Assembly: GCA_026416845.1 (NCBI GenBank) | Contig: JAOAEL010000001.1 | Location: 318-64,317 of the forward strand | Origin: Patescibacteria group bacterium | GTDB lineage: Bacteria; Patescibacteriota; Microgenomatia; UBA8517 | Reading direction: 5' to 3' | DNA: 64,000 nucleotides | In this document: one piece after another, positions 39,148-40,472 of the stretch | How positions within the stretch are numbered: position 1 is the stretch's first letter | Layout: each line of letters begins with the position of its first letter | Notes under the pieces: generated by a model | Databases searched by the model: none | Seen by the model: the letters and a program-made list of their open reading frames with translations, nothing else | Told to the model about the DNA's origin: nothing | Translations under genes and position numbers: made by a program

Positions 39148-39373
39148 AGACTTTACAAAATCAAAACTTCAGATAATAATCAGTTGGAAAATATTTTTTC
39201 ACTCTGGAGTAATTATAGCTTTTTTACAGAAGATAGTAAGTAAAACACATCACGAGAGGCAAAGTGGTTTTGCAAGAAAGAAAAACTTTCAAATTCGCAA
39301 TTTTGGCCGCTTTGTCCAAATTGCAAAGCTTTTTTTATTTTTCTTTCTTTTTTTTTCTTTTTTTGTTTTTTGT

Positions 39374-39751
39374 CCAGCGCTACAGAGGGCGACATTCGCC
39401 GGTAGCTACCTCACCGAAATGTTTGCGTTAAGCAAACTTTCTGGCAGCTTGTAGCGCTGGCTATTTAGTTGTCAACCAGCCGCTTTATCGGCCGGTGGGG
39501 GACGGGCACTGCCCGTCCCCAAATAATACATCACTCAATCCTATCGCGTCGCCGCGAGGATTGAGTTCCGCACAACGGGACCCATAATTGAGGGTCCCGC
39601 ATGCCAAGGTGAAGGCTAGCATAATCAGCCCAACCACGCAAGCAACCTTCTTTTTCATATTCATATTTCCTTCCTTGGGAAATAACCACACCTCACCCGT
39701 ATTGCTACGGTCGCGCTGTCGGAGATACGTTCTCCAAACCATACAGCGCGC
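39374..39751. other. GC-rich (about 60%) hairpin-dense non-coding island: candidate structured RNA or foreign insertion
   Basis: An 11-bp perfect closing stem (39374-84 with 39450-60) encloses three internal hairpins. Further hairpins are a 10-bp stem with 3-nt loop (39498-39520), a 9-bp stem (39534-39566), an 8-bp stem (39576-39599) and a nested 8/9-bp stem (39712-39750). A 44-nt polypyrimidine tract precedes it at 39329-39372. Confidence 0.4.
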
Positions 39752-40472
39752 AAAGAGATGCGGCTCTCAGACTTCGATTCACAATCAAAGCCTCAAAGCC
39801 GCACCCCTTTTGGGTAAGATGGGCATCCCCTAAAGAGTTGAATATGGGTATTTGGCAAGTAACGCATAAACTGACAAAAAGAGAAAATACCTTCACGCTT
39901 TATGAAAGCGCAAAAGCCAAAACCTTCCCCCTGAAGATAGCTTTCGACAGAATGTAGTAGCGGTCACAACAAGTGGCATGTTGGGCTACTCCTAAGCTTT
40001 TCCTCAGGAGTATTTGCCTCTCGTTATAAATGAGCCGTTGGAATTCACTTGCGTAAACTCAAGCCTTTCAAAGAAAGCTAGCTCATCAAGCTGAGTTATA
40101 TTCTTCTCAAGAGCAATTTTATTGTAGTACAAAATACTCAAATGGTCAGAACCATAAGACTTATACTTGGTTGGTTATTTTACCCTTTTATAAGGTTTTT
40201 ATGCTATCAAATATCTGGTGAAACACTTTTTCTCCATCCTCTATTGATTCACCTCTTGGGTAAAATACAAGTTTATATATTTTATCTTCAGCTTCCCAAA
40301 CATAAGCTCTGCAAATTGTCACACAATAAAGCGCGTTATAATAGTAAGCACTTAAACCAAGTTGTAAGGGGTTACTCAGTAAAAAGCCAGAAAAATCGAT
40401 ACAAAAAATAATTCGTCAAATGAATCAGAAAACCAAAACTTCATTTTTTTAATTATAAAGTAAAGTAAAGAA

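Follow-up and report, generated by a model that had tools for sequence, protein, structure and literature searches.

Long GC-rich intergenic regions are known to be enriched for structured non-coding RNAs (PMC6429828, PMC8723152), and it is in such regions that the large ornate non-coding RNAs of bacteria, such as GOLLD, ROOL, OLE and HEARO, occur (PMC6429828, PMC11109978). We describe an island of this kind in a Patescibacteria group bacterium (assembly GCA_026416845.1), at about positions 39365-40114 of a 64-kb stretch of contig JAOAEL010000001.1 that we refer to as the window. Like the ornate RNAs, it would give an RNA in the range of 600-800 nt with several domains and GNRA tetraloops, encoded in a GC-rich island of an AT-rich genome; unlike them, it has no Rfam match above noise at E <= 10, it contains an open reading frame (ORF) with a coding signature, and it is found in one species only.

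In type I toxin mRNAs such as hok/sok, a short membrane-peptide ORF is likewise carried by a long, stably folded mRNA with structured 5' and 3' ends, whose ribosome-binding site is closed by a distant upstream segment. Type I toxin loci are confined to particular lineages and escape searches for protein homologs, and orphan status is typical of the toxins. The island differs from hok/sok in that no sequence or covariance-model match links them, its RNA would be about twice as long, and its peptide has a lipobox followed by a 37-residue polar, Cys-containing tail. Dual-function RNAs (Staphylococcus aureus RNAIII with delta-hemolysin, SR1 with SR1P) also combine a length of several hundred nucleotides, many hairpins, a central ORF for a small secreted or membrane peptide and conserved flanking non-coding domains, but the island has no homology to them and a regulatory role of its non-coding domains is purely conjectural. 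RNA thermometers and riboswitch platforms similarly pair the Shine-Dalgarno sequence and AUG with upstream sequence, and in the island the predicted unpaired probability rises with temperature, although the island is far larger, its occlusion is partial, and it has neither a recognised ligand-binding motif nor a match to an Rfam model of this kind. Colicin lysis or bacteriocin release lipoproteins (PF02402, Lysis_col) are very small lipoprotein precursors (45-59 aa) encoded, as here, beside a bacteriocin-type cluster, but the island's peptide has no Pfam match at E <= 10 and related thiazole/oxazole-modified peptide (TOMM) clusters lack the gene. The mechanism of colicin lysis proteins needs a Gram-negative outer membrane. 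The evidence does not place the island in any named family; in its way of working it would resemble the highly folded type I toxin mRNAs or dual-function RNAs.

The reading that we favour, and to which we give about even chances, is that the island is a minus-strand transcription unit, running from about 40114 to 39370 or slightly beyond, that gives a very stable multi-domain structured mRNA. Its leader of about 450 nt would comprise a 5' domain closed by a terminator-like hairpin (a possible attenuator) and then a conserved four-way-junction core, followed by a 59-codon ORF for a lipoprotein-like secreted peptide and by a 3' three-way junction. The helix closing the core is predicted to pair a conserved segment further upstream with both the Shine-Dalgarno sequence and the start codon, closing the ribosome-binding site, so that translation of the peptide would probably be gated post-transcriptionally by the opening of the core (through a change of temperature, the action of a factor or processing of the RNA). 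The end of the RNA is probably shielded by the 3' domain.

Structure and strand of the island

The island lies within a 1325-nt gap separating two minus-strand genes, a 283-aa ORF (38296-39147) that is the first gene of a YcaO/nitroreductase (TOMM-type) cluster and a 634-aa orphan ORF (40473-42377). This is the placement given in the first-pass annotation, a reading of the letters that preceded our analysis. It had drawn a non-coding island at 39150-40130; the GC-rich structured part occupies about 39365-40114 (48% GC), whereas 39150-39365 is AT-rich. The window has a GC content of 0.347 and bin 39001-40000 is its only 1-kb bin above 0.39; the 200-nt profile rises from 0.29 to 0.44-0.55 between 39300 and 40100 and is back to 0.30 by about 40100. 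An exact recount reproduces the reported jump in composition, 72 G+C among the 120 nucleotides of 39481-39600 (60%), and each of the reported hairpins was located in the sequence, with further ones besides:

39498-39508 / 39510-39520: perfect hairpin, 11 bp
39533-39542 / 39557-39566: hairpin, 10 bp
39576-39583 / 39592-39599: hairpin, 8 bp
39712-39719 / 39743-39750: hairpin, 8 bp, around GGAGA/TCTCC
39374-39384 / 39450-39460: hairpin, 11 bp
39752-39810: imperfect 28-nt hairpin

A scan of GTDB genomes with the flanking 283-aa protein returned one relative of the same species, contig JANWVB010000007.1 of isolate SKYG105 (hereafter L001). It is colinear with window positions 40349-28310 at 96.7% identity and carries the island in the same context.

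We scanned the whole window on both strands in 240-nt segments with dinucleotide-shuffle controls (532 values; mean z about -0.2, standard deviation about 1.4). Three consecutive minus-strand segments of the island have z-scores of -10.6, -6.9 and -4.4, the first two being the most extreme values of the scan, beyond the segments containing tRNAs; the large structured RNA region proposed in the first-pass annotation is the top structure outlier of the window. The minus strand of 39365-40100 folds at -323 kcal/mol, compared with -231 +/- 7 kcal/mol for its shuffles (z -13.3), and since these shuffles preserve dinucleotides, base composition cannot explain the structure. The plus strand of the same region reaches -255 kcal/mol (z -7.5), with 12 G-U pairs versus 44 in the minus-strand fold. 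The asymmetry is also seen locally, in the energies of 39601-39840 (-106.7 kcal/mol on the minus strand, -67.5 on the plus strand) and the z-scores of 39841-40080 (-4.4 and +0.16), and the L001 copy is as strongly folded as that of the window (z -13.7, and -5.2 on the other strand). As the minus strand is far more structured than the plus strand, these folding models identify the structured molecule as a minus-strand RNA, which has the orientation common to both neighbouring genes. Its features are, from 5' to 3':

40121-40149, minus strand: promoter-like site (-35 CTGACC, 17-nt spacer, -10 TACAAT)
39918-40114, minus strand: 5' domain of several hairpins (GCAA-tetraloop hairpin 40041-40060; long hairpin 39964-40029 with apical stem 39987-40012)
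39875-39917, minus strand: terminator-like hairpin of 13 pairs, then U-rich tract AUUUUCUCUUUUUG, from a terminator scan
39655-39870, minus strand: core four-way junction (consensus fold, 76 pairs, -97 kcal/mol)
39752-39810, 39712-39750 and about 39697-39710: core arms (59-nt hairpin, nested hairpin and GCAA-tetraloop hairpin, respectively)
39841-39846 with 39662-39667: core closing helix, CAUAUU with the AUG region
39832-39836 with 39672-39676: core closing helix, UCUUU (within ACUCUUUA) with Shine-Dalgarno AAGGA
39826-39830 with 39677-39681: core closing helix, GGGGA with UUCCC
39669-39676, minus strand: Shine-Dalgarno sequence AAGGAAGG, ahead of the small ORF
39485-39664, minus strand: small ORF of 59 codons, or 57 from the second AUG at 39658 (MNMKKKVACVVGLIMLAFTLAC / GTLNYGSRCAELNPRGDAIGLSDVLFGDGQCPSPTGR)
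39473-39497, minus strand: hairpin with the UAA stop codon of the ORF in its loop (consensus fold; one G-U to G-C change between strains, none broken)
39374-39460, minus strand: 3' three-way junction (11-bp closing helix; 7-bp helix with 10-bp hairpin; 5-bp GGCGA/UCGCC hairpin)
39274-39372: A-rich tract (minus strand), then an A/U-rich inverted repeat with 12-bp arms (39274-39285 / 39338-39349) that encloses hairpin 39309-39329

Covariation between the two strains is clearest in the 3' domain. All 33 of its 33 pairs form in both strains, with four changed on both sides (U-A to C-G, C-G to U-A, G-C to U-A and A-U to G-C), two on one side and none broken. Controls with slid partners gave 27-43% pairing and 0-1 double changes. 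The shuffle control has a floor of 1/16 with two sequences; by our own rough estimate, four double changes among six altered pairs would arise by chance with a probability of about 10^-3 to 10^-4. A covariance model of the domain recovered the two input copies alone from the window and the related loci L001-L006, and no second copy is present in them.

In the core, the closing helix over the Shine-Dalgarno sequence and AUG is predicted in both strains, and its variable 3' strand changes yet the pairs stay. An ensemble calculation leaves about 60% of the RNA paired even at 70 C. We suspect that isolate SKYG105 came from a hot spring; tRNA GC content (0.51-0.65) does not settle thermophily. Upstream of the core, the two-strain consensus fold of 39871-40135, which also spans the terminator-like hairpin, has 85 pairs, with seven one-sided changes that keep the pair and none broken. 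This hairpin is kept in L001, where a C-to-U change makes the U run longer. It may be an attenuator, or else a distinct RNA of about 240 nt may have its 3' end there. The U tract has an alternative partner upstream in the consensus fold, GGGGGAAGG, so the role of the hairpin is ambiguous. The promoter-like site, which does not by itself show function and whose -10 hexamer is unchanged in L001, would put the start of the transcript near 40114, and the 39274-39372 region may act as a bidirectional terminator. On the plus strand, 39152-39345 contains a promoter-like site diverging from the first TOMM gene (TTTACA, 17-nt spacer, AATAAT; 10/12 matches), and about 150 nt beyond it a clean hairpin leads into a T run (39309-39340). 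The segment may encode a small divergent RNA, with an ordinary fold (z -1.1).

The first-pass annotation had found no convincing motifs of RNase P, tmRNA or SRP, and had named the Rfam covariance models as a check; Rfam and ARAGORN agree with it. At gathering thresholds, Rfam 15 gave only four tRNAs in the whole window, with no clean housekeeping-RNA match to the island, and ARAGORN gave four tRNAs and no tmRNA. There was no Rfam match to RNase P, tmRNA, SRP, 6S, GOLLD, ROOL, OLE, HEARO, raiA, T-box, riboswitches or group I/II introns. At E <= 10, 38900-40500 gave sub-threshold noise (best mir-3202, 26.8 bits for a threshold of 90), and a scan of the L001 copy gave no match. The island had no blastn match in phage and plasmid collections, and two of its 24-mers were absent from viral contigs. 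A 20-mer from the conserved core had two matches in JGI metagenomes, both confined to the 20 bases and rejected as chance. Neither the RNA nor the peptide resembles entries of the databases searched, and the island is found in one Patescibacteria species only.

Divergence between strains and the small ORF

The divergence of the two strains is very uneven along the island. As a neutral proxy we used the fourfold-degenerate sites of ten flanking genes, of which 58/1194 differ (4.9%). The blocks of the island compare with it as follows:

39681-39880: core block, 2/200 differ (1.0%)
39338-39406: block, 0/69 differ (0%)
39602-39680, minus strand: hypervariable patch 1, 35/79 differ (44%); spans the Shine-Dalgarno sequence, the start codon and the hydrophobic part of the signal peptide
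39407-39478, minus strand: hypervariable patch 2, 21/72 differ (29%); takes in the inner arms of the 3' domain, its loops and the preceding spacer
40026-40187: block, 22/162 differ (13.6%)

The 200-nt core is more conserved than the neutral sites, which indicates constraint on its sequence. The two patches diverge 6-9x faster than these sites, and the differences of patch 2 that fall within helices are compensatory. This combination suggests either diversifying selection or recombination, in patches, with alleles of much greater age, and on either cause diverged relatives of the island alleles should exist. We considered the target of a diversity-generating retroelement and rejected it: no island segment has a second copy in the window, and the strain differences involve each of the four bases, with a preference for third codon positions, rather than being adenine-specific.

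The small ORF is probably genuinely coding. It stays open in L001 at about 18% nucleotide divergence (32 differences and no indel over 174 aligned bases), the strain indels around it lie at or ahead of its start, and its differences fall 9/5/18 on the three codon positions. The peptide reads M(NM)KKKVACVVGLIMLAFTLACGTLNYGSRCAELNPRGDAIGLSDVLFGDGQCPSPTGR in the window and MKKKIAYFMGILLLGLTLACGTVNYGSRCAEPNPRGDAIGLSDALFGDGRCPTPTGR in L001. Its 13-codon hydrophobic stretch took 19 nucleotide differences and is still fully hydrophobic, which simulated mutants equalled in 1.4-1.8% of cases (p ~0.015-0.018). A Shine-Dalgarno sequence stands at proper spacing in both strains, in unlike sequences (AAGGAAGGAAAU-AUG in the window, AAAGGAGGGGGAU-AUG in L001, with AGGAGG ahead of the L001 AUG). 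The overlapping plus-strand ORF is not maintained, with 81 aa in the window and 52 aa in L001. The perfect hairpins inside the ORF (39498-39520, 39533-39566 and 39576-39599) have 1, 1 and 3 uncompensated mismatches in L001, so coding rather than structure is the dominant constraint there. The first-pass annotation had called the island non-coding and coding doubtful because hairpins overlap the ORF; a frame kept at this divergence with a coding signature, over hairpins that compensation does not preserve, speaks against that call. A hairpin-saturated GC-rich island can thus be coding, and hairpins are not evidence against an ORF.

The product would be a small lipoprotein-like secreted peptide, its lipidation being putative. 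The PROSITE PS51257-type criterion asks for a positively charged N-terminus, an uncharged hydrophobic stretch and [LIVMFWSTAG](2)-[LIVMFYSTAGCQ]-[AGS]-C within about 35 residues, and both strains carry these elements (MNMKKK-VACVVGLIMLAF-TLAC in the window, MKKK-IAYFMGILLLGL-TLAC in L001). The two nested starts of the ORF (39664 and 39658) are the sole matches to the lipobox pattern among six-frame ORFs of at least 45 aa in the window. In Pfam at E <= 10, the peptide of either strain matched no family. HMMER against 1.84 billion representatives gave five matches, all rejected as artefacts: the four inspected are long tandem-repeat proteins summing many weak stretches, and the fifth shows 32 matched stretches. 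A degenerate peptide scan of JGI metagenomes, with patterns drawn only from the variable N-terminus, found none, and exact-sequence look-ups had neither the ORF nor the flanking protein on record. The ORF was also tried as a TOMM precursor and rejected, as it is absent from six related clusters and the conserved Cys-rich core-like TCGPCCSCSCCCC is found N-terminally in the product of the second TOMM gene instead.

Rival readings of the island

Several observations weigh against a gated, structured mRNA for a lipopeptide. All the covariation evidence is one pairwise comparison of two sequences from one species. The promoter-like site at 40121-40149 and the terminator-like hairpin at 39875-39917 are consensus matches only, as is the plus-strand terminator (GCTTTGTCCAAATTGCAAAGC and a T run) flagged by the scan in 39274-39372. 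Occlusion of the Shine-Dalgarno sequence is only partial in the predicted ensemble, its mean unpaired probability being 0.41 (37 C) and 0.51 (70 C). Regarding the ORF, its G+C content at third codon positions is 0.60 versus 0.27-0.30 in the neighbouring genes, no homolog was found among 5.8 billion protein clusters (word-indexed search), and AlphaFold on the single sequence is confident for the N-terminal helix alone, which counts against coding. The lipoprotein call is putative in a window where tblastn found no Lgt homolog within the 64 kb. Finally, the in-ORF hairpins are not conserved, so part of the hairpin saturation within the ORF may carry no function.

Some of these points would fit a large non-coding RNA (about 750 nt) that acts as RNA and is as ornate as GOLLD, ROOL or OLE without being related to any of them, the small ORF being incidental or untranslated. 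We consider this unlikely. The size, the multi-domain architecture, the two GCAA tetraloops, the extreme z-scores and a GC-rich intergenic setting matching the known enrichment (PMC6429828, PMC8723152) agree with it, as does an ORF that lacks homologs and would stay stop-free by luck with a simulated chance of about 0.36. Such an RNA would not account for the third-position bias, the kept hydrophobicity of the signal peptide, the kept Shine-Dalgarno spacing or a lipobox unique in the window, nor for in-ORF helices that are broken without compensation in L001. A system akin to type I toxin-antitoxins would keep the coding ORF: a structured mRNA with a closed ribosome-binding site would encode a small membrane-active peptide and be silenced by an antisense RNA from the plus strand, the hypervariable patch being the region of RNA-RNA recognition. 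The N-terminal hydrophobic helix of a small peptide, the long structured mRNA with its Shine-Dalgarno sequence and AUG paired upstream (as predicted, with partial occlusion) and the orphan status are all as expected, and a plus-strand promoter-like site inside the ORF (39561-39588) would start an RNA antisense to the 44%-divergent patch at 39602-39680. However, this site matches only 9/12 of the consensus and has a poorer -35 in L001, it lacks a convincing terminator downstream on the plus strand, that strand folds much less strongly, and a canonical lipobox with a 37-residue polar tail is unlike most type I toxins; on balance we find this reading improbable.

The composition of the island (GC 0.48-0.55 in a genome at 0.35, with the third-position excess just given) would also be expected of DNA recently acquired from a GC-richer organism, or of decaying junk, with no role here and with incidental hairpins. 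Its absence from six related TOMM loci (three with a helix-turn-helix (HTH) gene, three with at most 660 nt of upstream sequence) and the recombination breakpoint at 40349 that adjoins it are in line with this. We hold it to be quite improbable, as no donor or homolog was found in phage and plasmid collections, GTDB genomes, JGI metagenomes or protein databases, a z-score near -13 survives dinucleotide-preserving shuffles, and the conserved core, compensatory 3' domain and open ORF are signs of selection rather than of decay. An assembly chimera or a contaminant in the contig, a possibility raised by the first-pass annotation, could have produced the abrupt change in composition, and the L001 contig has a coverage of only about 3x (from its name). 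But L001 is a separately assembled metagenome-assembled genome, colinear with the window across the island and the genes on its flanks, and strain-level differences are spread throughout; the island is therefore not an assembly chimera, and this explanation is effectively refuted.

The structured-mRNA reading can be extended to a bolder one, which we regard as speculative and improbable: that the island represents a previously undescribed class of large dual-function RNA in Patescibacteria, i.e., an ornate RNA of about 750 nt with a constrained core that also delivers a small lipopeptide and whose recognition surfaces (the patch of Shine-Dalgarno sequence, start codon and signal peptide, and the arms of the 3' junction) are shaped by diversifying selection or by alleles being often exchanged. 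If this is true, the RNA could be a strain-specific determinant (for example of immunity or addiction) coupled to the TOMM cluster and replacing its usual HTH regulator. If the structured mRNA is confirmed, it would give, for the Candidate Phyla Radiation, an example of a small-protein gene enclosed by an RNA that rivals the large ornate non-coding RNAs in elaboration. The evolutionary pattern of the island is unusual, with a near-invariant 200-nt core beside two patches that outpace synonymous sites 6-9x; it points to selection on RNA-level recognition and predicts diverged alleles in nature.

Genomic context and related clusters

The 283-aa product of the first TOMM gene weakly matches a TOMM leader-binding family. 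In three related loci (L002, L003 and L004), whose first-gene protein is 60-69% identical, an XRE-type HTH gene lies directly upstream of that gene and the island is lacking:

L002, 5786-5998: upstream HTH gene
L003, 28-237: upstream HTH gene
L004, 1561-1734: truncated HTH-like call of 57 aa, overlapping tRNA-Leu

Their place was compared with 39148-39370 of the window. No HTH remnant was found in the window by tblastn, and L001 has no HTH gene either. The more distant clusters L007-L009, with at most 660 nt of upstream sequence, have neither the island nor the small ORF. Judged by position, the island sits where the HTH regulator is otherwise encoded, in this lineage only, and any link between it and the adjacent TOMM genes is conjectural.

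On its other side, the island adjoins a strain-variable segment. Homology between the strains ends at 40349, and upstream of it the window (with the 634-aa orphan) and L001 (with a 157-aa ORF at L001 5-478) are unrelated:

40188-40349, minus strand: 3' remnant of the 157-aa ORF of L001, its last ~45 codons kept in the window

Neither the 157-aa ORF of L001 nor the 634-aa orphan of the window has homologs or family matches; scans of the neighbouring orphans (PADLOC, PHROGs, NCBIfam) gave nothing useful. Elsewhere in the window, the region upstream of the 634-aa gene has a z-score of -0.56, and a further outlier at 57121-57360 overlies ORFs.

At the start of the second TOMM gene (37780-38292, minus strand), a conserved segment resembling a leader and a Cys-rich run resembling a core, M(L/I)RLVSQFD(N/D)EK(M/A)RASVATPTCGPCC[CS]nC, are fused in frame to a multi-helix membrane domain of about 120 residues. 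The gene, which neither Pfam nor NCBIfam matches, has the look of a thiazole/oxazole precursor core joined to a membrane protein, and it has counterparts in L002 (6854-7354), L003 (1096-1560) and L004 (2566-3090). A tRNA-Leu lies 0.15-1.1 kb upstream of the cluster in L002 (4642-4726), L004 (1502-1590) and L009 (108-192). The nearest tRNA in the window is tRNA-Val (42586-42661), 3.4 kb upstream, and the orphan gene, the remnant and the island lie between it and the cluster.

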